In this document: piece after piece, positions 10,921 through 40,709 of the stretch
Layout: each line of letters opens with the position of its first letter
Numbering within the stretch: position 1 is the stretch's first letter
Assembly: GCA_039190745.1 (NCBI GenBank)
Contig: JBCCXZ010000012.1
Location: 1-64,000, forward strand
Direction of reading: 5' to 3'
Source of the DNA: Planctomycetota bacterium
GTDB lineage: Bacteria; Planctomycetota; Planctomycetia; Pirellulales; Lacipirellulaceae
DNA: 64,000 nt
The notes under the pieces: generated by a model
Database searches by the model: none
Told to the model about the DNA's origin: nothing
What the model saw: the letters and a program-made list of their open reading frames with translations, nothing else
Program-made: the position numbers and the translations under genes

Positions 10921-10935
10921 TGCAAATCAATTGCA
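10921..10935. promoter_or_regulatory. candidate Fur-family (Zur-like) operator TGCAAATCAATTGCA
   Basis: TGCAA-N5-TTGCA palindrome, differing by 1 nt from the site at 25039 next to the Fur-family gene. Confidence 0.75.
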
Positions 10936-10965
10936 AATAGAGCGGCCCGCCCCCTGCCTCGCCAG

Positions 10966-11439
10966 TTACGCCAGCGGGGCGTCGTCCAACTCCACCAAAG
11001 CACTGATATACAGCAGCGAATTCCGCTGAGCCGGCGTCGGTGCTTGCCGCACCAAGTCGAGCGCCGCCCGCAACACGTCACGACGACTGATCTGCCCCAG
11101 CAAGCGACCCTCTTCCACAACCGGCAGACGCCGGTAACTCGTCAGCAAAAACAATTGTGCGATAGATAACAATTGCGTGTCGGCCGTGATCGTCTGCGCC
11201 TCGGTGTCCATGAACGCCCGCACACGATTGCTCGGCAACTGCTCGTACGCGGCGTCCAGCAGCACGTGCATCGAGCACTTCTCGCTGAACACGCCCAGGT
11301 ACCGGCCGTCGTCGTCCACGACGGGGGCGCCAGAGATACGCTTCTTCAGCAACAGCTGCACAGCGTTCAGCACGTCCATGTCTGGGTGCAGCGTGACGAG
11401 TTTCTTCACCATGAAGTCGCGGGCGGCGAGCTGCTTCAT
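10966..11439 (-). CDS. CBS-domain pair protein
   Basis: ARDFM...ISGAPVVDDDGRYLGVFSE...RRLPVVEEGRLLGQISRRDVL. Confidence 0.9.
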   Translation of the reverse strand: MKQLAARDFMVKKLVTLHPDMDVLNAVQLLLKKRISGAPVVDDDGRYLGVFSEKCSMHVLLDAAYEQLPSNRVRAFMDTEAQTITADTQLLSIAQLFLLTSYRRLPVVEEGRLLGQISRRDVLRAALDLVRQAPTPAQRNSLLYISALVELDDAPLA

Positions 11440-11597
11440 TGCCTGGGGTCCTCCTCGCCCAACAAGCGCGGGCGTCCATCAAGACAAGCGAGACAATAAG
11501 AAAAGGGCCGCGTTGGCTGGTTCTGTGTCGAACTCATTACGTCCGTAATCGGTGCGTCGCGGTTGCTCTATCGTATCCGAGAATCAGTGCCAAGAGA

Positions 11598-23587: not shown

Positions 23588-24070
23588 CTAAGAGACGAAA
23601 GCAAGCCAGTAGAAACACCAGCCGGTCACGGCAGTCAGCACCATGTCGGCCGCCGCGATGCGGGCCCAACGCAGGTGGAACCGACTGTGCTCCGCCGGCA
23701 TCGGAGGGTTCGGGAATTTCCGCAACGCCCGAATGAGCACCAACGGCCACAACACGACCGTGCTGATCGCGAACACGAGATGCACCTGCAGTGCCCGCCA
23801 CACGGCCTGCGAAGCCGACCCGCCGATCTCCCCGGAGGCGCGGTCCTCCCAGCCGAACACCCGCACGTCGACCTCAAACGCCCCCACGGCCACGGCCAGC
23901 ACCGCCCCCAGCGCTACCTGTACATTGCGGTGCAACACATACCGCCCGCGGCGAGCCTGCAGAACACTCCACCAAAGCACCGGCAGCACCGCGAACATGG
24001 CCAGAAACACCACGTCGGTCATGAACGAGGCGCGGGTGCCGAGGAATCCATCCCACCCTGGGTAACTCAT
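23588..24070 (-). CDS. DUF420-family membrane protein
   Basis: Four TM segments with spaced His residues (LHRNVQ, VHLVFA, HSRFH). Begins GFLGTRAS. Confidence 0.75.
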   Translation of the reverse strand: MSYPGWDGFLGTRASFMTDVVFLAMFAVLPVLWWSVLQARRGRYVLHRNVQVALGAVLAVAVGAFEVDVRVFGWEDRASGEIGGSASQAVWRALQVHLVFAISTVVLWPLVLIRALRKFPNPPMPAEHSRFHLRWARIAAADMVLTAVTGWCFYWLAFVS

Positions 24071-24272
24071 GCTCGGCCTAGCGACTGGAACTCGGGGCAT
24101 CAATCTGCTGGCTCGCGGGAAACTTCCGCATTGCCGCGGTTGGACCGAGGCCGGCCAGCCGCTAGTCTGGCCATCGGCTCCTGGCGCGATACGGAATCAG
24201 CTGGAGATTAATCGCTTCGGGATGCGCCGGTCGCAAGGCCCCAAACAGTACCGGCGCCCCAAGAAAGAACCA

Positions 24273-24358
24273 GGCCGAGTGGCGGAATTGGCAGACGCTC
24301 TGGACTTAAAATCCAGTGGGGGGTAACCCCCGTGAGGGTTCGAGTCCCTCCTCGGCTA
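24273..24358 (+). tRNA. tRNA-Leu(TAA)
   Basis: Acceptor GGCCGAG/CTCGGCT, anticodon arm CTGGA-CTTAAAA-TCCAG, long variable arm GGGGG-TAA-CCCCC, T-loop TTCGAGT. Confidence 0.95.
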
Positions 24359-24476
24359 CTAGACCAAGAAATTGAACGGCTCGAATCGCCATATGGAAAG
24401 CTCCAACGCCTTATGGCAACAGCGGTGTTGGTCGGGGGATAACGCTCAACGCTTCAGCGATTGCGTATCTTCCGCT

Positions 24477-24920
24477 CTAGCCTGACTCGCAGTGACCACA
24501 GTGGCCGCGGATCATAATCTCGGTGACAGTACCTAGCTTCTCCCGCCGACCGCCTCGCGAAGGCTTAATCTGAAACGAATAATCCTCCAGGCAGGTCAGC
24601 CGACCGCAATCGACGCACATAAAGTGTGGGTGGGTAAACTCCGACTTGCTATCCGCACCTCTCAGCTCAAACCGTCTAGTATGATCCCCTAGGTCAAGCC
24701 TCGTCACGAGGCCAGCGTCCGCGAGCTCGTTCAAGCAACGAAAGAGCGTGGACTGATCGAACCCGAAGTCGCTCAGGGATTCGACGACTTCGGCGTGGGT
24801 CATCGGGGATGCCTCCGACGCCAGCAGCCTCAGAACCGCCACCCTTGCGGCAGTGGCGCGCAGGGCCACGTTCCGGAGGGTCTGTTTCGCCCAAGTTGCG
24901 TTTTTCTTGGGGAGCTTCAT
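24477..24920 (-). CDS. Fur-family transcriptional regulator (Zur-like by context)
   Basis: LRATAARVAVL, STLFRCLNEL, HPHFMCVDCG, GHCGHC. Confidence 0.9.
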   Translation of the reverse strand: MKLPKKNATWAKQTLRNVALRATAARVAVLRLLASEASPMTHAEVVESLSDFGFDQSTLFRCLNELADAGLVTRLDLGDHTRRFELRGADSKSEFTHPHFMCVDCGRLTCLEDYSFQIKPSRGGRREKLGTVTEIMIRGHCGHCESG

Positions 24921-24978
24921 GCAATCTTCCTGCGGGACGAGAAGACTTTTTTAGAGCTTAGCCAAGCGCCAGCCCACT

Positions 24979-24993
24979 TGCAATTGCATTGCA
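24979..24993. promoter_or_regulatory. candidate Fur-family operator TGCAATTGCATTGCA
   Basis: TGCAA-N5-TTGCA in the divergent fur/COG0523 intergenic region. Confidence 0.75.
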
Positions 24994-25038
24994 CTTGCTG
25001 ATTTCGCCGTTTTGCCAAGACCATCATACCCGCGCTAT

Positions 25039-25053
25039 TGCAATTCAATTGCA
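25039..25053. promoter_or_regulatory. candidate Fur-family operator TGCAATTCAATTGCA
   Basis: Perfect 7-1-7 palindrome overlapping a possible -35 (TTGCAT) of the COG0523 gene. Confidence 0.8.
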
Positions 25054-25134
25054 TTAAGGTAGCTTGCGTTTAGATATTGTCCCATTAGGGATATAACTTC
25101 CGTCCAGAGCGAGCGATTCATCAGCGCATTGCCC

Positions 25135-26379
25135 ATGCAGAAATCACTCCCAGTCACGGTCCTTTCCGGCTTCCTCGGCGCCGGCAAGACAACGGTCCTC
25201 AACCACGTGCTCGCCAATCGATCGGGGCTCCGTGTCGCGGTGATCGTCAACGACATGAGCGAGGTGAACATCGACGCCTCGTTGGTCCGCGGCGGTCAGT
25301 CGACCCTAAGCCGCACCGAAGAGAAGCTCGTCGAGATGACGAACGGGTGCATCTGCTGCACGCTCCGCGAAGACTTGCTCCAAGAGGTAGCAGAACTAGC
25401 CAGGGACGGCCGCTTCGACTACCTGCTGGTCGAGTCGACCGGCATTAGCGAGCCGCTGCCGGTGGCAGAGACCTTCACGTTCGCTGACGAAGAGGGCGAC
25501 AGCCTGTCCGACGTGGCTACGCTCGACACGATGGTGACCGTCGTGGACGCCGGCTGTTTCCTGAGCGACTTCGGTTCGTCCGACGATCTGGTCGATCGAA
25601 AGATGGGGCTTAGCGACGAGGACGAACGCAATGTCGTAGACCTGTTAACCGATCAGGTTGAGTTCGCGAACGTGATCCTGCTCAATAAGTACGACCTGAT
25701 CGACGAGCCGGACAAGCTGATGCTGCTGGGCGTGCTGCGGAACCTCAACCCGAAGGCGCGGATCATCGAGACCCTGCACGGCAAGATCGACCCCGGAGCC
25801 ATCATGGGGACCGGGCTCTTCTCGATGGACGAAGCCAGCGCCCAGCCCGGCTGGCTGGAGGTGCCACGCGGCGAAGAGCAGCCCGAGACCGACGAGTACG
25901 GCATCACGAGCTTCGTCTACCGCGCCCGCCGGCCGTTCCACGCGGCCCGATTGTGGGATCGACTCAACCAGGAAGGCGGCATCCTGGCGGGCGTCCTGCG
26001 GTCGAAGGGGTTCCTCTGGGTCGCCTCTCGGCACGACTACGCATACGTCTGGGCCCACGCGGGGGTCTCGGTGCAGTTGAACCCAGCCGGCTTGTGGTGG
26101 GCGGCGGCGCCCGACGACGAGTGGCCCGAAGACACTCCCGAAAACGCCGAGCTGCTGGAAGATATCCGCAGCGAGTTTGATGACCCATTTGGCGACCGAC
26201 GCCAAGAGATCGTATTCATCGGCATCGAAATGGACCGCCCGGTCATCGAGTCGATGCTGGAAGACTGCCTCCTGACCGACGAAGAGCTTGCATTCGGACC
26301 GGACCGGTGGGTCGATTTCGAAGACCCGCTGCCCACCATCGAGTGGCAGGACGGGGAGCCGATCGAGGAGAACCTGTGA
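25135..26379 (+). CDS. COG0523/CobW-family G3E GTPase metallochaperone
   Basis: [63 protein letters not shown]. Confidence 0.95.
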
Positions 26380-26978
26380 GTCGTCTGGAGTCGATAGCGC
26401 CGGAATCGATTGAGAATGAAGCCTCCGATCACGGTACGGCCAACCCCTGGGCGGACCGGGCGGGGCTTGTAGCCTCGGTGGCGTGCGCCATCCATTGCGC
26501 GGCGATGCCGCTTGTGATCGGCTACCTGCCGATGCTTGGGTTGAGTTGGCTCGCGGACGAGTCGTTCCACAAGGTCATGGCACTGGTTTGCTTTGGCCTG
26601 GCGGCGTTGGCGTTCTTGCCGGGGTGGCGCAGGCATGGGAGCCTCGCCCCGGTGCTGGTTGGATCGACCGGGGTGGTTCTGCTGGCGGTCGCGGCCTTCG
26701 GGCTCGAATGCGATGGCTGCGCGACCTGCTCGGAAACTAGCCTAGCGGCCGCAGAAGAGCCAGTTTGCAGCGCAACGGATTGTGCCCATTGCGCAGAAGC
26801 AGAGCCGGAAACCGTGGGCGAAGCCGCGGCTGTCGGCTCGATCGCGTGGTTTACGCCGCTGGTAACTCCACTCGGGGGGGTGCTGCTCGTTGCCGGGCAC
26901 TTGACGAATCACCGGAAATCGTGCGCCTGCTGCGGAAAAGGCTGTCCGCATGATTCCGAGGCGTCTGCCGAATCATAG
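26376..26978 (+). CDS. MerC-domain membrane protein with a Cys-rich insertion
   Basis: [37 protein letters not shown] overlap with the GTPase stop. Confidence 0.85.
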
Positions 26979-27065
26979 CCGAAAATAGACGGCCTTTTTG
27001 CACCCAGTTCCTCGCCCAGGCAACCTCCCAGGCGCTGTGAAAAGCCTTATTCTTCCTTGCCTAGA

Positions 27066-27098
27066 AGGCTCTGCTGCAACACAATTGTAGTAGAGCCT
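27066..27098. promoter_or_regulatory. extended palindrome containing operator TGCAACACAATTGTA (27075-27089)
   Basis: AGGCTCTGCTGCAA-CACAA-TTGTAGTAGAGCCT. The core has 1 mismatch to TGCAA-N5-TTGCA. Confidence 0.65.
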
Positions 27099-27107
27099 AA
27101 TCTACTT

Positions 27108-27539
27108 ATGCACCGCATTCTCAACAAAACCGCCGCTTGGTTAGCACTAGCGCACGTTGTGCTAGTAGGTGGTCTCGGTACGGGCCTGCACGCCTTGCTA
27201 GGCTGCGAGCATGGGTTGACCGAAAACTGCTCCGCCGCCTGCTGTGTGTCCGCCAAGTCGACGAGCGCTAGCTGTGAAGACTGCGTCTACTGCAGGCGGG
27301 CGGCTGAAAAGCAAAACAGCAACGACCAGCAAGAAGAAACCCTCGTCGCCGATGCGGGCCAGTGCTGCGGCGGTTGCGCCGTCTGCGATCTGCTGGCCCA
27401 GTATCAGAGCGTGACGCCTTTCGCCGTCGAGCCGCTCGCGATCGAGTTGGCCTCGGGCGAAGCGCCGATACAGCACGAGAACGCGGTGATCGCCGCCGCG
27501 ATCCGTCTGTCCCATTCTCGCGGCCCACCCGTGGCTTGA
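27108..27539 (+). CDS. DUF2946-like leader protein (TM segment, Cys-rich, CxxC, C-terminal SRGPP)
   Basis: N-terminal hydrophobic segment with GLH, CEDCVYC, CCGGCAVC, ends SHSRGPPVA*. Confidence 0.75.
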   Translation: MHRILNKTAAWLALAHVVLVGGLGTGLHALLGCEHGLTENCSAACCVSAKSTSASCEDCVYCRRAAEKQNSNDQQEETLVADAGQCCGGCAVCDLLAQYQSVTPFAVEPLAIELASGEAPIQHENAVIAAAIRLSHSRGPPVA

Positions 27540-27590
27540 CCTTCGTTGCCTTCGCTCCGAAGGCTCGTCCGTTCAGTGCCGCTCTGCCAT

Positions 27591-27605
27591 TGCAACACTC
27601 TCGCA
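27591..27605. promoter_or_regulatory. candidate operator TGCAACACTCTCGCA
   Basis: One mismatch to TGCAA-N5-TTGCA, upstream of the first permease. Confidence 0.5.
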
Positions 27606-27654
27606 AGGAGTTGTGCGCGGGCACGCGGCGTCTCCGCCCGCTTATGGGTCACAG

Positions 27655-28809
27655 ATGCCAATCATCCAAGAGTTTTGCACCGCGTTCTGTGCGGTCCTGC
27701 TTGAGTCCGCGCCGCTGGTGGTGCTCGGGTTTGTGATCGCCGGTCTGCTGCACGAATTCGTGCCCGACAAAATTCTGCGGCGTGGTGTCGCTGGGCGTAG
27801 CCTGGCGCCTGTGGCGCGCGTCGTGGGCGTTGGCGCACTGCTGCCAATTTGCTCGTGCAGCACGATTCCACTGGGAGTTGGATTGACCCGGAGCGGCGCA
27901 TCGATCGGCACCGCCCTGGCGTTCATGACCAGCTCGCCGGCGATCTCGCCGGTTACGGTGGTGCTCGGCTGGGCTGTGCTAGGGCCCATGCTGCTGGGGT
28001 GGTATAGCCTGGTGGCGGTCGTGGCGGCCGTCGTGATTGGGCTCGTGGGCAACCACTGGCTCGGCGAAGTGCCCGAGCCAGCGAAAACCAAGTCCGCCTG
28101 CTCCTGCAGCTGCGGCGCCAATCCCCCAGCTGCCAACAAGCTGTCGAAGGCCCTCCGCTGGTCGTTCGACGAACTCGGGACAGACCTCAGCGGATCGCTG
28201 CTGCTGGGCCTCCTCGCGGCGTCGCTCATCCTCGTGGCCTTGCCCGAAGGCATAGTGAGCGGCTGGCTCGCCGAGCCGAGCTGGACCGCGATGGCCGCCG
28301 CGGTGGCCGTCTCACTGCCCGCCTACACCTGTTCGGTGCCGTCTCTGTTGATCGCCGGCAGCCTCTTGACCCGAGGGGTCGACCCGGGGGTGGCCGTGGC
28401 GTTCCTGATCGCCGGCCCCGCCACCAACCTCGGTGAGCTGAACGCGATCCGCGGGGCAATGGGCTCTCGAGCCGCCGCGTTCTACGGCGGTTCGCTGATC
28501 GCGATCGCGCTGGCGGCGGGCTCCGCGACGGCGTGGTTGCCAGAGGCCGCGGTGACGACGCCGCACGCCCACGCGGGCCACGACCACGGGCACGCCCTGG
28601 AGGCGGTCGTGCTCTCCGGCGAAGGCCAGGTATCGCTTAGCTCGACTCCACGCTGGCGTTGGTTGTTCGCGGGGTGCATTGCGGTTCTTGCTGTCCGCTC
28701 GATGCTGCGTTGCATGACGGCCGCGCACAAACACGGGCAAGACACGAAACACAAACCAGCCGCTGAGCCGGCCGGCGCGCCGCAACTCTACGGAGTCGCC
28801 ACGAAATGA
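27655..28809 (+). CDS. DUF318/ArsP-like permease with His-rich loop
   Basis: LLPICSCSTIP, AFMTSSP, YTCS, AFLIAGPATN, HAHAGHDHGH. Confidence 0.85.
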   Translation: MPIIQEFCTAFCAVLLESAPLVVLGFVIAGLLHEFVPDKILRRGVAGRSLAPVARVVGVGALLPICSCSTIPLGVGLTRSGASIGTALAFMTSSPAISPVTVVLGWAVLGPMLLGWYSLVAVVAAVVIGLVGNHWLGEVPEPAKTKSACSCSCGANPPAANKLSKALRWSFDELGTDLSGSLLLGLLAASLILVALPEGIVSGWLAEPSWTAMAAAVAVSLPAYTCSVPSLLIAGSLLTRGVDPGVAVAFLIAGPATNLGELNAIRGAMGSRAAAFYGGSLIAIALAAGSATAWLPEAAVTTPHAHAGHDHGHALEAVVLSGEGQVSLSSTPRWRWLFAGCIAVLAVRSMLRCMTAAHKHGQDTKHKPAAEPAGAPQLYGVATK

Positions 28810-30080
28810 GCCGACTGTTCACGAGCACGACCCGGGCGCCGCGGCCGCGAACCAAGCGTTCGTTGGCGGATTGGCTGAAGTGGGTCGCCCTCGAAGACCA
28901 TTGTGAATGGGCCAACCGCTACGTGGCGTGGCTGAAGACCCCGCTCGGCGTCCTCCTGGTCGGGGCATTTGTCTCGCTACTCAGCGGCCTGTTCGTTGCG
29001 CCGCAAGGGTTCGCGCTGCTGGCCGGCATCGTGATGGTCATCGCGGTTGGGCTCGCGTGGCCGTGGATCGCAATGCGGGGCATTCACGCGCAGCTTGAGT
29101 TCGCCTCTCGGCGAGGCCGTGAGGGAAAACCAACGGTCGCCAAGTTTGTTGTCAGCAACCGGTGGCCCTGGCCAGTCTGGGGACTCGCTGTTGACGACCC
29201 GTTCACTGCCGACTCCTCGGAAGCGGCGGCACTGGCCCGCATCGACGGCTGGTCGCGGGCAACCTTCGATTGCACGTTCACTCCCTCAATGCGGGGCGCA
29301 TACCCCCGGAAGAGTGTCCTCATCGGCACTGCCTTCCCTTTCGGCCTCTGGCGGGCATCGCGGCCTGTGAAGTCGGAAAAGCGTCTTATCGTTTGGCCGC
29401 AGACGTTTTGGCTCCCGCCGCTGGGCGACAGCAGCAGCCGCGTCGACTGGCGAGGCGTGCTCTCAGAAGACCGCGCAGGCGCGGAAGGCTTCCGGCTCGG
29501 CACGCGAGAGCATCGGCACGGCGATACGCTCCGCGACGTGCACTGGGCCAAGAGCGCACGCTACGACCGACTGATCGTGAGCGAACGCGAGGCTTCGGTT
29601 GTCCCTGAAATTGCCGTGTTCGTAGATACCGACCCAGCGAGGCACTCAGCGGCGGGCGGCGACTCGACCCTCGAGTGGTCGCTGCGCATCGCGGCGAGTA
29701 TCTGTGAGTCGGTGGTTGAGAAACAGGGGGGCGTTCAGCTTTGGCTAGGGAATAAAAGGGTCTGTGCCCACTCGACCGAACTGCACCTGCAGCGGCTTTT
29801 GGATGAAATCGCTCTGTTGCATCAGGACGGCGCGGAATCGTCACAATCCGGCGGCGCACCGCAACTCAGCAACGCGCCCGGCATCCGCGTCTCGATCGGC
29901 ACGCACCTGAGCCCGATCCGAACCAACCGGGCGATTGTCTTGAGCGGCTATGGATTCGGAGGAAAACAAGAGCGGGACGACATCAACGGCTGGATCGTTG
30001 TCGACACGCCCGAGGACGTAGCCGACCAGATTCTCAAAGGCTGGCGGAACGGCACGCGGAGGGTCAGCCGTGCCCGTTAG
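28806..30080 (+). CDS. DUF58 domain protein (MoxR-associated)
   Basis: N-terminal TMs, RGAYP...FPFGL, REHRHGDTLRDVHWAKSAR. ATGA overlap with the permease. Confidence 0.88.
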   Translation: MSRLFTSTTRAPRPRTKRSLADWLKWVALEDHCEWANRYVAWLKTPLGVLLVGAFVSLLSGLFVAPQGFALLAGIVMVIAVGLAWPWIAMRGIHAQLEFASRRGREGKPTVAKFVVSNRWPWPVWGLAVDDPFTADSSEAAALARIDGWSRATFDCTFTPSMRGAYPRKSVLIGTAFPFGLWRASRPVKSEKRLIVWPQTFWLPPLGDSSSRVDWRGVLSEDRAGAEGFRLGTREHRHGDTLRDVHWAKSARYDRLIVSEREASVVPEIAVFVDTDPARHSAAGGDSTLEWSLRIAASICESVVEKQGGVQLWLGNKRVCAHSTELHLQRLLDEIALLHQDGAESSQSGGAPQLSNAPGIRVSIGTHLSPIRTNRAIVLSGYGFGGKQERDDINGWIVVDTPEDVADQILKGWRNGTRRVSRAR

Positions 30081-32349
30081 CCAGCACCTTAGCCGTGTCA
30101 CTGTGGTGCTGGTTCTGATCGCGACCGCGCTCTTGCAATTTGCGCTAGACGGTCGCGGGGTGCACGATGGCCCTGCGTTGCTGGCCGTCTCCGTCGGAGG
30201 CGCGGTCTTCGTGGGGATGCTCGCCCGACGGCGTCGCTGGTCGGATTGGAACCTCGGCGCAGTTCTAAGCGTGCTCGCCCTTGCGTTGCTCCCCATCGTC
30301 TGGGATGGGGCCGCGCGGGTTTCCACACGGTTCGGCAACCCCTACGAAGTGCAGTTAGCGTGCGTTCTCCGGAACGCGATGCTCGGCTTGGCCGCAACGC
30401 CCCGCCTGCCGCGGGCCACGATCCAAGCCGCTTTCGCGAGCTTCTTCTTGGTCGTGTTCGGCTTCCTGTGGGCGACAGACTTCTGGTCTATCGGGCTGTT
30501 GGTCGCCTACTCGGCCGTCGGCGCGTGGTGGCTCTTCGCCGCGTACTGGGAAGGCCTCGGCGGACGGTTTGCCGACTCTTCAGAGCGTGCCGTCCCGGTG
30601 CGGCCAGCCCTCGCGGTCATCGCGTGCCTGGTGTTGTTGGCGTTGGCCGCGGCCCCCTTGGCGAGCCGGTCGAAAGCCACCACGGCCCTCGCCGGTTTCT
30701 TCCCGAGCTCCGGCGGGACGTTCTGGAACGACCCGTACGCGCAGGGAGGCGTCGGGGACGGCGATCAGATGGTTGCGGCGAAAGACCAGGCATCCGGCTT
30801 CGGACCGATCGATACCGATCTGTTCCTCGAATCAGAAATGCCGAGCCTCTACGACAGCTTTAGCGAGTTTTCCGAGGCGGAACCGGTCAAGAAGAAGCGC
30901 GTGCGGCGTGCCATACCGCTGGCGCCGTCCCAGATGCAGAGCAACCACAAGCGGCGCGGGCTCACGCAGCAATCCACCCGCGAGTTTGATACGGTCCGCC
31001 AAAACACGGCGCAGACCCCGGAGACCAAAGACCGGCTATCGGCGGCCTTGTTGCTGGTGAAGGGGCAAACCCCGCTGCACCTGGCGTTGGAGACCTACGA
31101 CCGCTGGGACGGCCGTTCGCTCATTGCCAGCAGCGAGCAGGCACCGCTGGAGACCAAGCTCCGCAACGCGGAAGAGGGCGGCCTCCGCTGGCTCGACCTT
31201 TCGATCACGCTGCCGAGTGACTGCTTTACGTCCTCTAGCCGGAACCAGGTGCGCATCGTCAATCTCAAGACAAAGCGGGTGCCAACACCCGCCGGAACGA
31301 GGAGCGTTACGCTCAGCCGGCTTCACTCGGGCTCGATGTTCACATTTGCCGACGACGGTTCTCTGGCGATGGCGGTCGACCACGTCCCTCAGCTTACAAT
31401 CTTCGAGTTCGAAGCCGGGCTCCGCGACAGGCACTCGACCCTCCAAATGGAGCAGTCGGCCCCAGAGGCAAGCGACGACGCGGCCACCCTCCTAGCCCGT
31501 GAGTGGGTGCGCGGCGTCCCCGCAGGATGGCCGCAAGTTGAGGCAGTGGTCGCTCGCCTGCGGCAAGACTACACACACGACCAGACCGCAATGGTTCCCA
31601 GCGATGCAGAAGACTCCGTAGAGTACTTCCTGAGCAATTCCAAGCGGGGTCCAGACTTTCTGTTCGCCGCCTCCGCCGCGGTGATGCTGCGGTCCCTGGG
31701 GTACGACACCCGAGTGCGGAGCGGGTTCTACGCCAACCCCGACCGATTCGAGCGCAACTCTGACTTGACCCCGGTCGTCGCCGAAGACGCCCACTTCTGG
31801 GTTGAGGTCCGCACCAGTAACGGGCTGCGGGTGACGAAAGGCGGTGAGAAACTAGCCGGCGTTTGGGCGACGGTTGAACCCACCCCGGGATACGAGTTGC
31901 TTTACGCCCCGGAAACGCTGCTGACCCGCTTTCGGCGAACGGTCGTGGCTTGCTTGTTGTTGCTCGCAGCCTACCCGATCGTTTCTTGCTCTGTACTGAT
32001 CGTCGCTGGCGTGGCTTTAGCGACCCGGCGCAGGTTGTTCGACGCGACGCTCGTGGGTTGGTGGTCGGTCCTTTCACGAGGGGCCAAGGCAGACCGGCTG
32101 GCTCGGCTAACGCTCCGCTTGCTGCAGTGGCGTGCGTGGGCTCATCGGCAGAGTCGCCCGATCGGGACCCCCCTTGGAAAATGGGAAACACTTTACGCCC
32201 ACGGCGACTTCGTCGCCCTCGCCTCGTGGGCGCTCTACGGCGAGGGCACACCGGCCCCCTTGCGGCCGCAGTGCGCCCGCCGAGCCTGCTGGGATGCAAT
32301 CCGAACACCTTTGCCACGAGCGGGTAGGCCGCAGGAAGGCCAACGATGA
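30070..32349 (+). CDS. membrane-anchored transglutaminase-like protein (catalytic Cys position is Asp)
   Basis: Multi-TM N-terminus, YDRWDG, RGPDFLFAASAAVMLRSLGYDTRVRSGFY, AHFWVEV, WATVEPT. Confidence 0.85.
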   Translation: MPVSQHLSRVTVVLVLIATALLQFALDGRGVHDGPALLAVSVGGAVFVGMLARRRRWSDWNLGAVLSVLALALLPIVWDGAARVSTRFGNPYEVQLACVLRNAMLGLAATPRLPRATIQAAFASFFLVVFGFLWATDFWSIGLLVAYSAVGAWWLFAAYWEGLGGRFADSSERAVPVRPALAVIACLVLLALAAAPLASRSKATTALAGFFPSSGGTFWNDPYAQGGVGDGDQMVAAKDQASGFGPIDTDLFLESEMPSLYDSFSEFSEAEPVKKKRVRRAIPLAPSQMQSNHKRRGLTQQSTREFDTVRQNTAQTPETKDRLSAALLLVKGQTPLHLALETYDRWDGRSLIASSEQAPLETKLRNAEEGGLRWLDLSITLPSDCFTSSSRNQVRIVNLKTKRVPTPAGTRSVTLSRLHSGSMFTFADDGSLAMAVDHVPQLTIFEFEAGLRDRHSTLQMEQSAPEASDDAATLLAREWVRGVPAGWPQVEAVVARLRQDYTHDQTAMVPSDAEDSVEYFLSNSKRGPDFLFAASAAVMLRSLGYDTRVRSGFYANPDRFERNSDLTPVVAEDAHFWVEVRTSNGLRVTKGGEKLAGVWATVEPTPGYELLYAPETLLTRFRRTVVACLLLLAAYPIVSCSVLIVAGVALATRRRLFDATLVGWWSVLSRGAKADRLARLTLRLLQWRAWAHRQSRPIGTPLGKWETLYAHGDFVALASWALYGEGTPAPLRPQCARRACWDAIRTPLPRAGRPQEGQR

Positions 32350-33305
32350 AGACTCTCGCCGAAACTTCGAGAATCGAGCACAACGCCGATCACGGGATCG
32401 TCGAAGAACTGCGTACCGAGTTGAACCAAGCGTTGCGTGGCAAAGCGGATGTCGTCGAGATGGTCCTTGCCTGCCTGCTGGCAAAAGGGCACCTGCTCTT
32501 GGAGGACCTGCCCGGTCTGGGCAAGACTACACTCGCCAAAGCCCTCGCGCACGCGGTTGGCGGCAGGTACTCCCGCGTCCAGTGCACGCCCGACCTGATG
32601 CCGAGCGACATCACGGGCTTCAACCTGCTGAACCAGAAGACCAGAGAGTTTGAGTTCAGCGAAGGCCCGGTGTTTACCGACGTGCTGCTCGCTGATGAAA
32701 TCAACCGAGCTACGCCGCGCACCCAGAGTGCGCTCTTCGAGGCGATGGCCGAACGTCAAGTCACCATCGACCGCGAACGCCGCCTGCTGCCGAGCACATT
32801 CTTCGTTATCGCGACGCAGAACCCTATCGAGAGCCACGGAGCTTACCCCCTCCCGGAGGCGCAGCTCGACCGCTTTGCGATGAAGCTGTCGATCGGTTAC
32901 CCCGACCCCGAGAGCGAACTGGCGATGCTCCAAGACGATGCGGCTACTGGAGGCGACAACGAAGAACGGTCGGCGGTCGTCGCCCCCGTCGCCCTTGGGG
33001 AACTCCAGGAGCACGCCCAGGCCACTATCGTCAGCGAAAAGGTCCAGCAGTACCTCGTCGCCATCGCGAGCGAGACCCGCGAGAACGAACACGTGACGCT
33101 CGGGCTCAGCCCCAGAGGGGTCCTCACCTGGCAACGAGTCGCGCAAGCGCGGGCTTTCCTCCAAGGCCGCAACTTCGTCACGCCCGACGACATACAAGAC
33201 GTTGCCGGTCCGGTGCTGCGTGTCCGGCTCGCCGGCGACTTCCCGGACGCAGACTCGTTCATCAAAGACCTGCTGGCACGCACGCCGGCGCCGACATTCG
33301 ATTAG
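32346..33305 (+). CDS. MoxR-family AAA+ ATPase
   Basis: HLLLEDLPGLGKT, RVQCTPDLMPSDITG, LLADEINRA, ATQNP, LPEAQLDRF, SPRG. Confidence 0.95.
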   Translation: MKTLAETSRIEHNADHGIVEELRTELNQALRGKADVVEMVLACLLAKGHLLLEDLPGLGKTTLAKALAHAVGGRYSRVQCTPDLMPSDITGFNLLNQKTREFEFSEGPVFTDVLLADEINRATPRTQSALFEAMAERQVTIDRERRLLPSTFFVIATQNPIESHGAYPLPEAQLDRFAMKLSIGYPDPESELAMLQDDAATGGDNEERSAVVAPVALGELQEHAQATIVSEKVQQYLVAIASETRENEHVTLGLSPRGVLTWQRVAQARAFLQGRNFVTPDDIQDVAGPVLRVRLAGDFPDADSFIKDLLARTPAPTFD

Positions 33306-33338
33306 CCCACTTCTTTACCCTTCTCAACAGAGCCTGCC

Positions 33339-33965
33339 GTGTTGCCAATAAGACTAATCCACAGATTCTGCCTGTTTACCGCGACTTCGGTTTGCCTCGC
33401 GTCGCTCGCCGGCTGCGGAACCAGCGGAGAGAGCGATTCCGAGCACTCGCACGGCCACGAGCATGACCACGACCACGGTCACAGCCACCGCCCGGAGTCG
33501 CTCCACGAAGCGGTCGCAGAGCTCGAAAGCCTTAGCGAGGCCATCCGGACGGCCATCGTTGACGGCGATCCGAAGGACGCCCACGACCCGCTGCACGAGA
33601 TCGGATATCTGCTCGAAGCGATCCCGGATGTCGCCGCAGAGACGGACCTGCCAGAAGAAGAATGGAACGCCGTGAAAGCCGCGAGCGAGCAGCTGTTCGA
33701 TGCTTTCGCCGAGATCGACAAGACTTACCACGTCGAGGACGGAGACAAGCAGGCGGTTTACGAAGACGTCTCCGCTGGTGTAGACGAGGCCATCGAGGAA
33801 ATCCGCTCGCGGCTGCCGCTCACTGGCGAGAAGCCTGATGCCAGTGACCACGATCACAGTGACCACGATCACGACGGCCACAGCCACGACGACGGCCACG
33901 ATCACGGTAGCGGGGACGAAGGCGAGGCCTCCGGGTCGGATGAGCGAGCCGAGGACTCGGAATGA
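33339..33965 (+). CDS. His-rich lipoprotein (candidate metal-binding protein)
   Basis: Lipobox SLAG-C, HSHGHEHDHDHGHSH, helical core with AHDPLHE, second His/Asp tract at the C-terminus. Confidence 0.8.
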   Translation: MLPIRLIHRFCLFTATSVCLASLAGCGTSGESDSEHSHGHEHDHDHGHSHRPESLHEAVAELESLSEAIRTAIVDGDPKDAHDPLHEIGYLLEAIPDVAAETDLPEEEWNAVKAASEQLFDAFAEIDKTYHVEDGDKQAVYEDVSAGVDEAIEEIRSRLPLTGEKPDASDHDHSDHDHDGHSHDDGHDHGSGDEGEASGSDERAEDSE

Positions 33966-35518
33966 GCGGCGCCGTCGAGGCGGTATTCTGGGGCGGGCTG
34001 CTCCGCTTTGCTCAAGCGACGCTCGCCGCCGCCCCGACCCTCTTGGTCGGGCTTGTTGTGGCCGGGGTCTTCCGGAAACTGCTCGGCCCCGATGCGACGC
34101 GCAAAGCATTCGGCGGCGACTCTTGGCGTAGCCTCCCACAAGCGTGGCTCTGGGGAATGCTATTGCCGGTCTGCTCTCTCGGGGTGATCCCCGTCGCGTA
34201 CGAACTAAGGCGCTCAGGCCTCTCAGGAGGGACGATCCTTGCCTTCTGCCTCACAGCGCCGCTCTTCAACCCGCTGTCCTTGCTCTACGGGCTGACACTT
34301 TCGTCTCCAACGGTGCTGATGGCCTTCGCGTTCGCATCGCTCTTGGTGGTCACCGTTGTTGGATTCACCTGGGACCGGTTGTTCCCTCACACTGCACAGC
34401 CTCCGTGCGAGGAACCCGCGGTGCCCCCGGGCTTGGGCAGGATCCTCTCGGTAGGTATGGCGTCCGCGAGGCACGCGGCCGGCCCGACACTCCTGTATTG
34501 TCTCATCGGGCTCTCGGGCAGCATGCTGCTGACGGTCATCTTCCCGCACGGGAGCCTGACCGACTCGATGGCCCACACCGACCGAACCGCCCCACTGCAG
34601 ATGCTACGGGTCGCGATCCCGGCCTACGCCACGCCGCTGAACGTCATGATGCAAGTCGGCGGAATGTTCGTTCACGGAAACTCGGTCGGAGCCGCCTACG
34701 TTCTGCTCGCCCTCGGCGCCGGCGCGAATCTCGGGCTCATCGCCTGGGCTTGGCGGACCTACGGCTTCGGCCGCGCTGCTACGTTCCTCTCGCTGCTGAT
34801 TGCGGTCGTCATGGTCATCGCTTACGCGGTCGAGGACCCCCTGTACTCGGCCGGCTCGGTCGAGCACCCGCACACCCATGCGTTCGACGTGTACGCTTGC
34901 CCGTTCCGTGCGGGCTCACGGAACCTTGCTGATCGGGCCCGGCGGCTACTCGCAGACGATATGCCGATGTACGAGCTTATCTCGCTAGCCGCGGTCGCAA
35001 CCTTTGTGGCGTCAGGGCTTGGGCTGCGGCGGTTCGATCCAGAAGGGCAGATCGAAGCCTCGCTGGCCAGCCGGGCACAGCCCGCAGAAGACGCACCGAA
35101 GTCGGTCTTGAACGCGGAGGTGCCGGGCCCGGTGCTCGGCGGCGTCGCGATCGCGGGCCTCGTCGCCCTGAGCATCGTGGGTTGCTTTATCTTCTACCCA
35201 GCTCCCGAAGAGACGCTGGAGGAAATGAGGTACGTCCGGGCCGACTTGTGGTCTTACGCCGCCTCGAAGGACGTGGAGAACACCGGCAGGTGCATCCAAC
35301 GGTACGACGACCTTACCCGCAGGCTGCAGGTCGGCTACTACCTGCGCACCCTCACGCTCACCGAGTTCCAGCAGTCCAAAGCACGCGTCCTGCGGGGGCG
35401 ACTGGAACAGCTGAAAGACGTTGTCGAGGCGGGCGAGTTCGACCGGGTACGAGAACTCAACACACGCGTGAGCGACGCCCACCAGAGAGTCCGCGAGGCG
35501 TTTGAAGGCAACGAGTAA
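33962..35518 (+). CDS. second DUF318-like permease with a C-terminal soluble domain
   Basis: LLPVCSLGVIP, LTAPLFNP, HPHTHAFD. ATGA overlap with the lipoprotein. Confidence 0.8.
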   Translation: MSGAVEAVFWGGLLRFAQATLAAAPTLLVGLVVAGVFRKLLGPDATRKAFGGDSWRSLPQAWLWGMLLPVCSLGVIPVAYELRRSGLSGGTILAFCLTAPLFNPLSLLYGLTLSSPTVLMAFAFASLLVVTVVGFTWDRLFPHTAQPPCEEPAVPPGLGRILSVGMASARHAAGPTLLYCLIGLSGSMLLTVIFPHGSLTDSMAHTDRTAPLQMLRVAIPAYATPLNVMMQVGGMFVHGNSVGAAYVLLALGAGANLGLIAWAWRTYGFGRAATFLSLLIAVVMVIAYAVEDPLYSAGSVEHPHTHAFDVYACPFRAGSRNLADRARRLLADDMPMYELISLAAVATFVASGLGLRRFDPEGQIEASLASRAQPAEDAPKSVLNAEVPGPVLGGVAIAGLVALSIVGCFIFYPAPEETLEEMRYVRADLWSYAASKDVENTGRCIQRYDDLTRRLQVGYYLRTLTLTEFQQSKARVLRGRLEQLKDVVEAGEFDRVRELNTRVSDAHQRVREAFEGNE

Positions 35519-35524
35519 TCGCGG

Positions 35525-35620
35525 CTAGAGCGCACAACACCGAAGCGTAGCGGCTTCTCCGTCGGAACAGTCGGCGAAAACATCGCCGTCGACGCTACAC
35601 GTATGTGCGACTCGCACTAA
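35525..35620. mobile_element. 96-bp dispersed palindromic element (MITE-like), copy 2
   Basis: 89/96 identical to 3850-3945. Confidence 0.65.
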
Positions 35621-36040
35621 TGGTAACTAGCACCTTGTTGCTTCCACGGTTCGGCGTTGTGGGCAGCATGGCGTCGGCGAGCGTCGTGAACGCATTGCTC
35701 GGCGTCTGCACGTTAGGCATGCACCGCGTCGGAAAACTAGCAGGTGCAGCACGACGCGACAGGAGCGGCGCCAGGTGCTCTTGCCGATGCTGCTGCACCC
35801 CAAGCCGGAGCGGGTCCGCTGCATCGGTCTGGCAACGGGGATCTCCGCCGGAGCGGCTATCGATCTCTCGCCAACGTGCGAGTTGACCGCGATTGAGATT
35901 TCGCCGTCGGTCACCGAAACGGCCAAACTCCTTATCGACGAATTCAACGCGGAGCTACCCAAGAGCCTACGAGGCAAGTTAATCGTGCAAGATAGTCGAA
36001 CTTACATCGCTGCTTGCGTCAACCAGTACGACGTTATCCG
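35620..36040 (+). pseudogene. relic of a membrane-fused spermidine synthase-like gene
   Basis: Fragment TLLLPRFGVVGSMASASVVNALLG in one frame, then QERRQVLLPMLLHPKPERVRCIGLATGISAG..TAIEIS..QDSRTYI..YDVI in another. Truncated at both ends. Confidence 0.65.
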
Positions 36041-36379
36041 TACCGCCCATAAGGCGCCGGCGAAGGGCGCCTCTACGGAGTTGAGCACTGCGCCGCCAAG
36101 TTTCTGCAGGGGTATCCTTCCGCGGAGCTCATCCGGGGGAAGGCCAGAACACCTTGCCACAATTAATCATTCACTGATCTCCGCAAGGCGAGATTCGTTG
36201 GACTCTACGAGGCAACACGGACTTAAGCTTGCCTAGGCAAACACAGTTGTGCTGATGCGTTTTCATGCAAAGCAAGATACGGCAACATTGGCGCCACGAA
36301 CAAAACAACAGGGGCAATAACGCCGCGCGGTTTGGGAGGAAAACTAAGCACAGGCCGCTATGGTCACCGTCACTTCCCG

Positions 36380-37975
36380 CTAGTTTGAGGCATCCGCCGA
36401 CAGTTCAAGCACGACGCACGACGAAACAGAATCGCCAACCGCTTGCAGTCGATCGGCCAAGGGCTTTGCGTCGCCACCGACCTTGAGCGTTGCGGGGACT
36501 TCCTCCGGCGTCACCGGCGTGCCTGTGAGCTCCTCGACCGCGGCGGCGTCTTGCACCGTTAAAATCGGCCCCAGCGTGAGCCTCGTCAGCCCGTTCGTTT
36601 TGAGATAGCCCCGGTTCGCTGCCAGCCGATTACCCGAGATGGTTGCGGTGGTCGCCTGCTCGTAAGTGTCGCCCCGGGCGGCCCGTTTGTCATGGTCGTC
36701 CAGCCGTTTCTCGGAGACCTCAAACGCGTAGTCGCCGTTTGAGACGCACGTGTTGTCCTGAACGAACACCCGTCGGCTGTTGCGGATGCGCACGCCGGAC
36801 TTCTTGTTGCCGACAATCATGTTGCCCGCGATCACATTGTCGGAACTCTCGTAAACCGCGACGCCTTGGTTGTTCAAATAGGCCCTGTTGTCGACGACGA
36901 CGTTGCCGGTGCACTCGCGGTCGAGCATGATCCCCGAGCCTGCGTTGCGGTGCGATTCATTCGCAAAGATAAAGCTGTCCGAGACGCCCCGGGAGCCGAT
37001 GATCCCGTGCCGCTCGACCGTCCCGGAAACGTTGTTCTGGGCGATGATCAGCCGGGTCGACCGGTCGTGGGGGTCGATCCCGTACTTGACGCAATCGCGG
37101 TACCGATTCCCAACGATCGCCACGTCGCGGGCCTCGTACGAATAAAAGCCGTAGAAGAGCCGTCGGAATTCATTGCCCACGAGAACCCCCGTCGGCCAGT
37201 CGTCGTTGACGCCCCCCCGCTCACGCTCGGGTTCGCTTGAGAGGCTGATCCCATACGACGTCGGGGCCGCGTAGCCCAAGTCCTGGAAGACGCTGTCGAG
37301 CAGCACGGTGTGCGAACGGATGTGCGACGCGAGATAAGGGCGGAAATGCTTGGGGTCAGACAGAGGGGTTGCCGCTCCCGAGTCTTCGTCCCAGGACGTG
37401 ACCAACGAATCCACAACCCACAGCGTCCCTGCGTTGATCACAAACGCCCCGTCGCCCGTCGACAGCCGCAATTCTCGCGTGTTCGAGCCGTTCACCACGA
37501 GGGTTGCGCCAGGCTGGATCAGTAGCGGCAGCCGCAGGGTCGCAACGCCCGCCTCCGACGAGGCAACCAGCGGGTCGTTGACCTGGGCTATCAACTCGCT
37601 GAGGGTGAGTGTCCCGCTCTGCGCGGCTAGCGCACGCAGGTCTTCGGTTCCCTGCCGCTCGACCAAATCGGCACGCCTGTTCGATTGGAGCGACTCCTCA
37701 AGAAAATCATCTCCGTCTGCCGCTATGAGACCCGCCACACCGTCCGAACCTGAGGGGAGGCCCCGGCGGACTGCAGCAGGCTCGAAAAGAGCGAGGTCCG
37801 GCAACTCGACATCCGGAGCCGCATAGACCTGGTCGCACGGGGCAACCACGTACTTCGATTCTTGGGCGAGCGCCGCCGGCTCGAAACCGCGACACGCCGT
37901 GGCGACCAGCAGCACAACCAACACCCGACCGCACGCACAGCCGCGTCGGGAGGACCCCGCAGGGGTTTCACTCAT
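36380..37975 (-). CDS. algG: AlgG-like poly(beta-D-mannuronate) C5-epimerase, exported beta-helix
   Basis: FRPYL, LGYAAPTSYGIS, YGFYSYEA, YGIDPHDRSTRLIIAQN, HGIIGSR..DSFIFAN, SGIMLDR, VYES and GVRIRNS, collinear with Pseudomonas AlgG as recalled. Confidence 0.85.
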   Translation of the reverse strand: MSETPAGSSRRGCACGRVLVVLLVATACRGFEPAALAQESKYVVAPCDQVYAAPDVELPDLALFEPAAVRRGLPSGSDGVAGLIAADGDDFLEESLQSNRRADLVERQGTEDLRALAAQSGTLTLSELIAQVNDPLVASSEAGVATLRLPLLIQPGATLVVNGSNTRELRLSTGDGAFVINAGTLWVVDSLVTSWDEDSGAATPLSDPKHFRPYLASHIRSHTVLLDSVFQDLGYAAPTSYGISLSSEPERERGGVNDDWPTGVLVGNEFRRLFYGFYSYEARDVAIVGNRYRDCVKYGIDPHDRSTRLIIAQNNVSGTVERHGIIGSRGVSDSFIFANESHRNAGSGIMLDRECTGNVVVDNRAYLNNQGVAVYESSDNVIAGNMIVGNKKSGVRIRNSRRVFVQDNTCVSNGDYAFEVSEKRLDDHDKRAARGDTYEQATTATISGNRLAANRGYLKTNGLTRLTLGPILTVQDAAAVEELTGTPVTPEEVPATLKVGGDAKPLADRLQAVGDSVSSCVVLELSADASN

Positions 37976-39236
37976 GGTTCTCCGCTCCCCGGTAAACCAA
38001 CTCGTTGAAATCGGTCTCCGACCGCCGCTTCGGTATCGCCTTCAAGAGTTCGAGCAGTTCCGGGGCCTGGTACTTCATAGCGCCCAAGTAGAGAATCTGG
38101 GCTTGCCGCGGCGAAATCTTGTAGGGCTTCAGCATCGGGTGCGGCCACTCTTGTTCCCCAGCCAGGTATGGTTCGAGGTACCGCAAGGCTCGGAGGAGCG
38201 CCGGGTCGTCCTCGGGGCAACGCCAGGCGTCCAGTCCCACGGCTTCCCCGACCCGGGCGGCGGTGCTGAGGGCGAGCAGATTGAATACGCTGTAGTGCAA
38301 CGAGATCGACCGCTTCAGCTCGTGCGGCTGGCGCCCTTGGTCGTCGATCTGCCGCTGAAGCCTTTGATCGATGACCTTCGTGACGATCTGCCTTGCTAGA
38401 TCGTCCCTGCCTACGAATACCGCGATCCGCCCGGCCTGGGCGGCGTGCCACGAGCCGTGGTTGTTCTCGGCTTGCTCTTCTTCTTGCCCGAGGTCGCTCT
38501 CGAGGAGCCAATCGAGGTAGCTCCGAAACCACTCCGCCAACGCGGCGCGGTCTTCCGAAGCGAGAAGCCCCGCCGAGTGCAGCAGCTCGACGCTGTCGAG
38601 CACCCTGATGAAGCTGCGCGTGTCGATCACCCCGACGCCCCGACCGACGGCTCTTCCCGGGACGGCTTGGCCGAAACGCAGGTGGGGGTTCATCCGGGTC
38701 TTCGCTTCCAGGAACCAGACGCGGACCAACTCGGCGGCGTGGCGAGAGTACCGGTCGTCGTCAAAGAAGTAACCTGCGAGCGTCAGGGCCTCGACGTCGT
38801 CCATCATCATCCCGATCGGCGTGCGGTCGCCGCGTTCAACCAGCGATCGGTTGACCACCCCGTCTCGCCGGACGTACGGCAGGCCGTCGTCGGTATCAGG
38901 GTTCGGCCACCAGTAACGGCTGAAGCTGATGTAGTCGTGCCGATCGCCGCTCGGAGCGAGCTCGTCTTTGAAAACAACCGAGTACGGACCGCGGTCCAAA
39001 GCAGTGTCAGCGTAAGACTTCAGACGCCGCAGCGCGTGGCGGATGCCGTCTGAATCCGCCGCCCCGGCTCGAACCTTTTCGATGTGCCGGAGGTCCCACA
39101 GGACAACGGTCGGCTCTGCGGCGTGCGACGCGGACGCCGCGACGACCAGTGCGATCCAGAGAAGGCTGCCAACGACCCGGGAGCGACGGGGCAGTCGAGG
39201 CCTGGGGTGGGTGGTAAGGCGACGGGAGCCGGGCAC
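37968..39236 (-). CDS. exported alginate lyase domain protein (PF05426; PL38-like)
   Basis: HDYISFSRYWWPNPDTDDGLPYVRRDG, TRMNPHL, NNHGSW, GRQPHELKR, HYSVFNL. Confidence 0.85.
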   Translation of the reverse strand: MPGSRRLTTHPRPRLPRRSRVVGSLLWIALVVAASASHAAEPTVVLWDLRHIEKVRAGAADSDGIRHALRRLKSYADTALDRGPYSVVFKDELAPSGDRHDYISFSRYWWPNPDTDDGLPYVRRDGVVNRSLVERGDRTPIGMMMDDVEALTLAGYFFDDDRYSRHAAELVRVWFLEAKTRMNPHLRFGQAVPGRAVGRGVGVIDTRSFIRVLDSVELLHSAGLLASEDRAALAEWFRSYLDWLLESDLGQEEEQAENNHGSWHAAQAGRIAVFVGRDDLARQIVTKVIDQRLQRQIDDQGRQPHELKRSISLHYSVFNLLALSTAARVGEAVGLDAWRCPEDDPALLRALRYLEPYLAGEQEWPHPMLKPYKISPRQAQILYLGAMKYQAPELLELLKAIPKRRSETDFNELVYRGAENHE

Positions 39237-39242
39237 GGCCTG

Positions 39243-40694: not shown

Positions 40695-40709
40695 TACGCC
40701 CTTAAAGAC

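Follow-up and report, generated by a model that had tools for sequence, protein, structure and literature searches.

We examined a 64,000-nucleotide stretch from a marine planctomycete of the Lacipirellulaceae (contig JBCCXZ010000012.1, positions 1 to 64,000; hereafter the window), in which six adjacent genes at 27655-35518 encode, in this order, a permease (permease 1), a DUF58 protein, a transglutaminase (TGase)-like protein, a MoxR ATPase, a His-rich lipoprotein, and a second permease (permease 2). The genes are tightly packed. Three of their junctions are 4-bp overlaps (AAATGAGC, CGATGAAG, GAATGAGC), in which the TGA of permease 1 overlaps the ATG of DUF58, the stop codon of the TGase-like gene overlaps the ATG of MoxR, and the stop codon of the lipoprotein gene overlaps the ATG of permease 2. 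The DUF58 and TGase-like genes overlap by 11 bp (TGase-like start GTG 30070), and MoxR is separated from the lipoprotein gene (start GTG 33339) by 33 bp. Open reading frames (ORFs), junction sequences and Pfam matches agree throughout with the initial annotation of this DNA, which had described overlapping genes, a 33-bp gap, and a His-rich lipoprotein gene overlapping that of a second permease. The genes are as follows:

27613-28809, + strand: permease 1, an ArsP_1 protein with a CSC motif (probable ATG 27655; Pfam ArsP_1 131.5 bits)
28806-30080, + strand: DUF58 protein (Pfam DUF58, PF01882, 30.6 bits; gathering cut-off 23.4)
30070-32349, + strand: TgpA-like membrane protein with a Transglut_core domain (45.7 bits; cut-off 23)
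32346-33305, + strand: MoxR-type AAA+ ATPase (AAA_3 205.4 bits, cut-off 27; AAA_lid_2 67.6 bits)
33339-33965, + strand: His-rich lipoprotein (lipobox LAGC at residues 23-26; 20 His)
33962-35518, + strand: permease 2, 518 aa (Pfam ArsP_1 51.6 bits; cut-off 32.3)

The Pfam family shared by both permeases, PF03773 (ArsP_1), was formerly named DUF318. MoxR is the last member of the DUF58-TGase-MoxR trio, as had been remarked for this DNA before, and it is so in every related locus as well. A scan of 24000-37000 for terminator and promoter consensus sequences was uninformative: it found no promoter-like site, and 16 terminator-like sites where 10.9 would be expected.

To define which of these genes belong together, we retrieved 55 loci by means of two permease-2 motifs, taking one genome per species. 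Because this retrieval can find only loci with permease 2, reverse tests were run in 400 genomes sampled evenly across Planctomycetota and in 40 related genomes. Nearly all of the 55 loci come from Planctomycetota metagenome-assembled genomes (Lacipirellulaceae, Pirellulaceae, Planctomycetaceae, Gemmatales and Thermoguttaceae), and two Verrucomicrobia and a few bins with other labels are also among them. Upstream DNA of 1300 bp or more is available for 52 loci; in 50 of them MoxR is the gene immediately 5′ of permease 2, and the exceptions are the two Verrucomicrobia. Of the 43 loci with 4 kb or more of upstream DNA, 41 have the TGase (it is missing from L039 and L073) and 37 have DUF58 (tblastn). 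Four of the six DUF58 misses (L052, L053, L056 and L060) form one close group, and the ORF at the DUF58 position of L052 has a weak Pfam DUF58 match of 22 bits. A Gemmatales locus, L037, carries the MoxR-permease 2 pair along with a Cys-less TGase. The cassette is also found in several complete genomes, among them members of family f20.

The conserved core of the cassette is made up of DUF58, the TGase-like protein, MoxR and permease 2, usually with a His-rich lipoprotein between MoxR and permease 2. Permease 1 is a local add-on outside this conserved unit; together with the Cys-rich single-transmembrane (TM) protein encoded 5′ of it, it occurs in only 7 of the 55 loci. A COG0523 gene is present in 19/55 loci and a fur homologue in 12/55, and both are neighbours rather than core members, COG0523 being one within the regulon.

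The reverse tests gave the same picture from the side of the TGase. Close relatives of the TGase-like protein occur in only 5 of the 40 related genomes (E<=4e-63), all of which keep the order DUF58-TGase-MoxR-permease 2 with fur and/or COG0523 genes nearby, and permease 2 (E<=1e-25) is found in the same five. Across the phylum, where searches scored only the top two to three candidates per genome, the TGase clade (E<=2e-24) occurs in 13/400 genomes; full-length permease 2 occurs in the same 13, in each case 1.1-2.3 kb from the TGase and on the same strand (13/13). Among all 440 genomes, permease 2 and the TGase clade are therefore concordant in 18/18 carriers, with neither found alone at the thresholds used. 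In about 75 further genomes, the ArsP_1 permeases are generic ones whose match is confined to residues ~16-308. As the arrangement recurs across families of Planctomycetota, it is beyond chance. The initial annotation had expected the trio to be co-conserved with both permeases; this holds for permease 2 (18/440 genomes, with MoxR in 50/52 loci) and fails for permease 1 (7/55).

A few of the bins carry unexpected taxonomic labels. The cassette MoxRs of L048 and L059 (labelled Chitinophagaceae) and of L049, L056 and L058 (labelled Kuenenia) hardly differ from the MoxRs of Planctomycetaceae or Pirellulales bins, an example on the tree being the MoxR of L059 against that of L064. These labels probably reflect mis-binning or mislabelling.

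We then considered the three proteins of the trio. Residues 487-580 of the TGase-like protein align to TgpA (6g49), with D529 at the Cys of GFCAHYA. None of 47 orthologue rows has a Cys at this nucleophile column (one row is gapped and one badly aligned); the residue is mostly Asp, with Pro, Ala or Gly in some clades. His575 (HFWVEV) is retained in all well-aligned rows, and the third site (E603) is mostly Glu and sometimes Asp or Gln. Canonical TgpA-like paralogues from two related genomes retain GHCEYFA, HAHSWVE and LDPTP. Because the catalytic Cys is absent in the orthologues, the alignments mark the cassette clade as a pseudo-enzyme (pseudo-TGase) from which transglutaminase chemistry is not expected, and the "transglutaminase" of the initial annotation does not stand as such. 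A metal site formed by D529, H575 and E603 was considered and dropped, since some clades have Pro, Ala or Gly in place of D529. Judging by hydropathy, the protein probably has some six TM helices at its N-terminus, then a loop of 427 residues, a further TM helix and a basic tail.

The DUF58 protein has an N-terminal TM hairpin, as judged by hydropathy, followed by a domain like that of von Willebrand factor A (VWA), with conserved blocks RGxYP, FPFGxW and GD..R..HWA..AR. The DxSxS motif that defines the metal-ion-dependent adhesion site of VWA domains is absent, only D274 being conserved there in alignments of 38 and 22 sequences. In MoxR, the Walker A (GLGKT) and Walker B (LLADEINR) motifs can be read intact in the translation. 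The protein weakly matches the BchD and cobaltochelatase models of NCBIfam. AAA_3 genes number four in this genome, the cassette MoxR included. In a quick tree with only three outgroup rows, 50 cassette MoxRs separate from the three other paralogues with a support of 100 (Shimodaira-Hasegawa-like approximate likelihood ratio test, SH-aLRT), which marks the cassette MoxR, on this phylogeny, as a separate, cassette-specific paralogue.

Permease 2 departs from its better-known relatives in several respects. Among 46 sequences, H304-T-H-A-F-D309 (HTHAFD) and R462 are invariant and C71 is present in at least 90%. Permease 2 has PVCSLG, retaining only the first Cys of the motif (CSL rather than CSC), and permease 1 has PICSCS; the CSC motif is described as a family signature of ArsP_1-type permeases in bioRxiv 10.1101/2022.07.06.499078. 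On the SO_0444 model (NF033936, cut-off 300), permease 1 scores 187.7 bits and permease 2 71.8 bits, both below the cut-off, and permease 1 reaches 189.6 bits on the SaoE model, also under its cut-off (NCBIfam). The AlphaFold model of permease 2 is confident (predicted local distance difference test, pLDDT, 85.2; predicted template modelling score, pTM, 0.84). It predicts four broken helices, with C71, N103-P104 and G254-N256 at the breaks; the HTHAFD loop would follow this core, and after it two extra TM helices and a C-terminal four-helix bundle (415-515). Foldseek gave no match in the PDB at E<=0.001 for the models of permease 2 or of the lipoprotein. With VIA-align, permease 2 gave generic bundle matches, and its core a weak match to Pho90 (Z 11.5, root-mean-square deviation 5.0 over 272 residues) that serves as a lead only. 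Permease 2 falls into two subtypes, with ~30% and 45-89% identity to the window copy, and one locus (L071:7776-9305 and 10001-11515) has both in tandem behind a single trio.

The slot between MoxR and permease 2 is filled in more than one way. Twenty loci have the helical His-rich lipoprotein seen in the window, at least seven have an unrelated His-rich lipoprotein with the motif HGGR.V.IGH.HH, and 20 have no gene at this position. Pfam and NCBIfam searches of 14 and 8 neighbouring ORFs, from four loci that lack a lipoprotein gene, named no His-rich propeller protein, and several of the His-rich ORFs there matched no named family. Because two different His-rich lipoproteins fill the same slot, the comparison argues for a periplasmic metal binder that works with permease 2. 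In 17 sequences of the helical form, G25 and C26 of the lipobox, H46, H48, H86 and H131 are invariant. Its AlphaFold model predicts a four-helix core (~residues 55-156) with pLDDT >92 and disordered flanking His/Asp tails. A comparison with the sequences of solved structures returned only low-complexity His matches. The lipoprotein core and the C-terminal domain of permease 2 (35192-35515) are both modelled as four-helix bundles of ~105 residues, and both match PsbQ/CyanoQ-like structures first, within the usual range for helical bundles (Z 13.9; E 0.04). A homology between the two bundles was considered and rejected (hhalign probability 2.7%).

Upstream of the cassette lies a group of genes and candidate operators:

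24477-24920, − strand: Fur-family regulator, probable Zur, divergent from the COG0523 gene (Pfam FUR, PF01475, 43.8 bits; cut-off 23.1)
24979-24993: palindromic operator candidate TGCAAT-N3-ATTGCA, site 1 (perfect match)
25039-25053: palindromic operator candidate, site 2 (perfect match)
25129-26379, + strand: COG0523 GTPase, ZigA-like (likely ATG 25135; cobW 181.3 bits, CobW_C 85.6 bits; GCICC motif)
26307-26978, + strand: MerC-like Cys-rich membrane protein (Pfam MerC 76 bits; hydropathy); the ORF as listed overlaps the COG0523 gene and its start is uncertain
27057-27539, + strand: Cys-rich single-TM protein (probable ATG 27108), with no match in Pfam or NCBIfam
27075-27089: operator-like site with two mismatches, 19 bp 5′ of ATG 27108

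The ORF that starts at ATG 27108 is the probable first gene of the operon. On the other side, 3′ of the cassette, 36380-42086 (− strand) is an unrelated polysaccharide-use block with genes for a NosD/beta-helix protein, an alginate lyase, an enolase-superfamily protein and a GFO/IDH/MocA oxidoreductase.

Between the fur and COG0523 genes, TGCAAT-N3-ATTGCA thus occurs twice without a mismatch. The whole genome contains four perfect copies and one with a single mismatch, against none in a reversed control. The other two perfect sites stand 5′ of a thioredoxin-like/DUF1826 gene pair and adjoining the gene of a Pyr_redox_3 flavoprotein. The 55 loci, 914,898 bp in all, contain 32 sites that deviate at no more than one position (reversed control 0), many of them directly 5′ of DUF58 (or the first cassette gene) or of cobW. 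A same-genus relative has a one-mismatch site at the position matching the pre-operon site of the window. One palindrome 5′ of both the COG0523 gene and the cassette, together with the ZigA score of the COG0523 protein (589.1 bits), supports the metal link that the initial annotation had drawn. Its choice of the COG0523 chaperone as a partner fares less evenly: the operator is common to both, and the gene itself is found in only the 19 loci counted above. On balance, we consider the cassette likely to be one functional unit of a metal regulon.

Several other genes touch this regulon. The Pyr_redox_3 flavoprotein (L004:147-1280, − strand, on contig C43 of the same genome) is weakly YpdA-like and lies ~220 bp from its perfect palindrome; homologues in two relatives (L018:16448-17575 and L020:1968-3107) adjoin cobW or are placed divergently from fur, and it is a probable regulon member. 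The one-mismatch palindrome, at 10921-10935 of the window, adjoins a CBS-domain gene (10966-11439, − strand) and unnamed ORFs. A thioredoxin-fold lipoprotein (L001:1511-2191, contig C5 of the same genome) has a CxRC motif, a second conserved Cys (CPS/TY) and a palindrome upstream. Its homologues occur in L033, L044, L063, L067, L068, L069, L072 and L036, and in relatives the gene has a place within the cassette, in some loci directly preceding DUF58 and in others lying between MoxR and the lipoprotein.

Which metal this regulon serves can be approached through its neighbours. The COG0523 protein matches the ZigA model (NF038288) over its full length at 589.1 bits (E 3.6e-177; cut-off 600), against 154.3 for CobW. 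DUF1826 appears in a legend on Zur-regulated COG0523 clusters (Haas et al. 2009, PMC2770081). The sole ZnuA-family gene of the genome (L095:227-2079, contig C28) lies at a contig end directly 3′ of a DtxR/MntR-type regulator, with no palindrome within 6 kb, and likely encodes a manganese or iron-type importer rather than ZnuA. Because of the ZigA-like COG0523 protein, DUF1826, and this ZnuA-family context with its DtxR/MntR regulator, zinc is most likely the metal and starvation the signal, as far as sequence can indicate. The genome has two Fur-family genes, the second being more canonical (83.9 bits). The content of the regulon speaks for the regulator at 24477-24920 being Zur, which we consider probable. 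We also considered whether ZnuA is distributed in a manner complementary to the cassette; this was rejected, as 33/41 relatives, including all carriers, have ZnuA-family genes.

In Planctomycetota, FUR and COG0523 genes adjoin zepA, the gene of the zinc exoprotein ZepA, which is of the PEP-CTERM type, according to a 2024 study (PMC10957091). PEP-CTERM proteins are encoded among cobW, fur and cassette genes at L016:16176-17234 (− strand), L020:14060-15013 (− strand) and L019:14102-15622, one of them with HAF repeats. These PEP-CTERM proteins of related loci may be counterparts of ZepA.

The region is thus most likely part of a zinc-starvation (Zur) regulon, and our preferred reading assigns each component a role within it. 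When zinc is scarce, the Fur-family repressor would leave the TGCAAT-N3-ATTGCA sites. The lipoprotein would gather Zn(II) on its His tails and on a core site formed by H86 and H131, and permease 2 would move the ion over the inner membrane through a site made up of the HTHAFD loop and the helix breaks at C71, N103 and N256. The ZigA-like GTPase would allocate the metal in the cytoplasm. MoxR on the cytoplasmic side, DUF58 anchored in the membrane and the pseudo-TGase spanning it may together form a dedicated AAA+ chaperone of permease 2, acting by gating it, by stripping tightly bound metal, or by assembling it. We infer that the metal is zinc, that its direction is inward and that the components are physically coupled. 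The whole reading, import included, is held tentatively, at somewhat less than an even chance. A more specific version, in which the MoxR ring mechanically drives or gates the ArsP-type permease through the DUF58 adaptor and the pseudo-TGase, pulling in tightly bound zinc, seems to us quite unlikely. Like the initial annotation, whose interpretation is partly supported as a whole, we infer rather than observe an ATP-driven machine for metal uptake or loading.

A number of observations weigh against this zinc-import reading or against the coherence of the unit on which it depends. Twelve of the 13 carriers in the phylum sample belong to one family, and the carriers are mutually related. The genes are also separable: in L039, MoxR, lipoprotein and permease 2 are kept while a sulfatase replaces DUF58 and the TGase; the two Verrucomicrobia have permease-2 homologues with no trio; in L078 (genome G135), a further lipoprotein-permease 2 pair stands well apart from any trio; and in G196, MoxR lies 4 kb away. 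The operator is unevenly preserved, with two mismatches in the pre-operon site of the window, no site within two mismatches in L017, and none within one mismatch in several loci of family f20. The ZigA score falls 11 bits short of its cut-off. NCBIfam searches and searches against the sequences of solved structures could not separate the regulator as Zur from Fur/PerR. Other routes for metal entry also exist, as ZnuA-family genes are found in carriers and non-carriers alike (33/41 relatives) and one ZIP gene in the genome means that the cassette is not the sole route. The positive-inside rule gave no settled orientation for the HTHAFD loop or the C-terminal bundle of permease 2. Those ArsP_1-family members for which a role has been tested or proposed are exporters only, and permease 2 matches their models weakly; SO_0444 is needed under Zn/Cu excess (PMC3219624), and an efflux function is ascribed to SaoE and ArsP (bioRxiv 10.1101/2022.07.06.499078).

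This last point leads to the main rival, which leaves the unit and its regulon unchanged and reverses the flow. Permease 2 (and permease 1) would pass zinc to the periplasm, where the lipoprotein would act as a chaperone and the trio would load exported zinc enzymes. Such a role would match the exporters among the characterised or named relatives of the permease and the part that MoxR/VWA systems play in metal-centre insertion, including that of calcium in periplasmic methanol dehydrogenase (MxaR/MxaS). It would also give a place to the 427-residue inter-TM loop of the pseudo-TGase, the corresponding TgpA loop being periplasmic, and to the thioredoxin-fold CxRC lipoproteins found inside the cassette in at least seven loci. 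However, no client enzyme is conserved beside the cassette, a ZigA-type chaperone points to allocation in the cytoplasm, and export of a scarce metal requires a special rationale. We regard outward flow as unlikely, though it carries the most weight among the alternatives. Efflux could instead serve resistance, with an efflux permease, a periplasmic buffer and a stress chaperone acting against excess Zn, Cu or Cd. Permease 1, with its CSC motif, its 187.7 bits on the SO_0444 Cu/Zn efflux model and the MerC-like and Cys-rich proteins adjoining it, would suit such a module, but permease 1 and the Cys-rich protein are absent from 48/55 loci. Furthermore, the cassette has its operator in common with the ZigA-like COG0523 and DUF1826 genes, both of which mark starvation regulons, and no MerR/ArsR-type excess sensor lies nearby. 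Detoxification is the least probable of the explanations considered here.

Two further explanations, likewise less likely, concern the metal and the trio. With a Fur, Mur or Nur regulator in place of Zur, the cassette could serve Mn, Fe, Co or Ni. The best matches of the regulator are Fur and PerR models and structures, and His-rich tails bind Ni and Co too. The palindrome is also unlike the familiar Zur boxes and resembles the Mur/Fur boxes of alpha-proteobacteria, which would allow for Mn or Fe control. The COG0523 score (ZigA 589.1 against CobW 154.3 bits) and the presence of DUF1826 within the regulon argue for zinc instead, and the genome already has a second, more canonical Fur gene (83.9 bits) and a DtxR/MntR regulator accompanying its ZnuA-family gene. 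We give another metal only a small probability. Alternatively, the trio might stand outside the transport cycle as a general system of membrane-protein quality control or regulation, helping permease 2 to fold or degrading it when metal is replete. A pseudo-TGase that has lost its nucleophile and a DUF58 protein that lacks DxSxS both look scaffold-like, and the rearrangements in L039, G135 and G196 show that the genes can part. Against this stand the co-occurrence in 18/18 genomes and the dedicated MoxR paralogue, which argue for a specific and obligate partnership, and we consider pure quality control very unlikely, although it overlaps with the assembly branch of the zinc-import reading.

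The trio of MoxR, DUF58 and TgpA families is widespread, and a 2025 review (PMC12067865) still gives its role, and that of DUF58 in particular, as unknown. For one clade of it, there is now a single co-inherited partner and a regulatory context, by which a vague "chaperone-like ATPase" becomes experimentally testable in metal handling. If the driven-permease version of the zinc-import reading were true, the cassette would be an AAA+-energised importer, distinct from ATP-binding cassette (ABC), TonB-dependent and ion-coupled systems, and permease 2 would be the first defined client of the trio. More broadly, these findings suggest that Planctomycetota, which abound in marine and fresh waters and in which metal homeostasis has received little study, handle zinc by a route not recognised before, and would widen the roles of ArsP-family permeases beyond efflux. 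That the combination is undescribed, as the initial annotation had supposed, agrees with a full-text search of a limited library, which found the trio in bifidobacteria and mycobacteria and nothing that links it to Zur, COG0523 or an ArsP-type permease.

Several known systems share parts of this arrangement. ZnuABC/ZinT, AztABCD/AztD and ZepA resemble it in having a Fur-family regulator, a COG0523 neighbour and a His-rich periplasmic metal binder. Unlike ZnuABC and AztABCD, the cassette has no ABC transporter; its membrane step would fall to an ArsP_1-type permease, and its ATPase is an AAA+ MoxR. With SO_0444, SaoE and ArsP (the ArsP family of TCDB) it has a permease fold family in common, and permease 1 keeps the CSC motif. 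Permease 2, by contrast, has CSL, adds HTHAFD, two TM helices and a four-helix bundle, and scores far below the equivalog cut-offs, and the regulatory context appears to be one of starvation rather than excess. The MoxR/VWA systems for metal-centre insertion (MxaR/MxaS, NorQ/NorD, CoxD/CoxE and BchI/BchD) also pair a MoxR-class AAA+ protein with a VWA-like partner in a metal context; here, however, the conserved partner is a transporter, with no conserved enzyme client and a DUF58 protein that lacks DxSxS. Closest in composition are the MoxR-DUF58-TgpA trios of the Bifidobacterium PFNA operon and the mycobacterial moxR operons, in which the same three families are encoded together; the Pseudomonas TgpA gene, too, lies beside DUF58 and MoxR genes. 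The cassette differs from those trios in its order, DUF58-TGase-MoxR, in the loss of the Cys that TgpA (6g49) and the canonical planctomycete paralogues retain, and in being joined to an ArsP_1-type permease under a metal-regulon operator.

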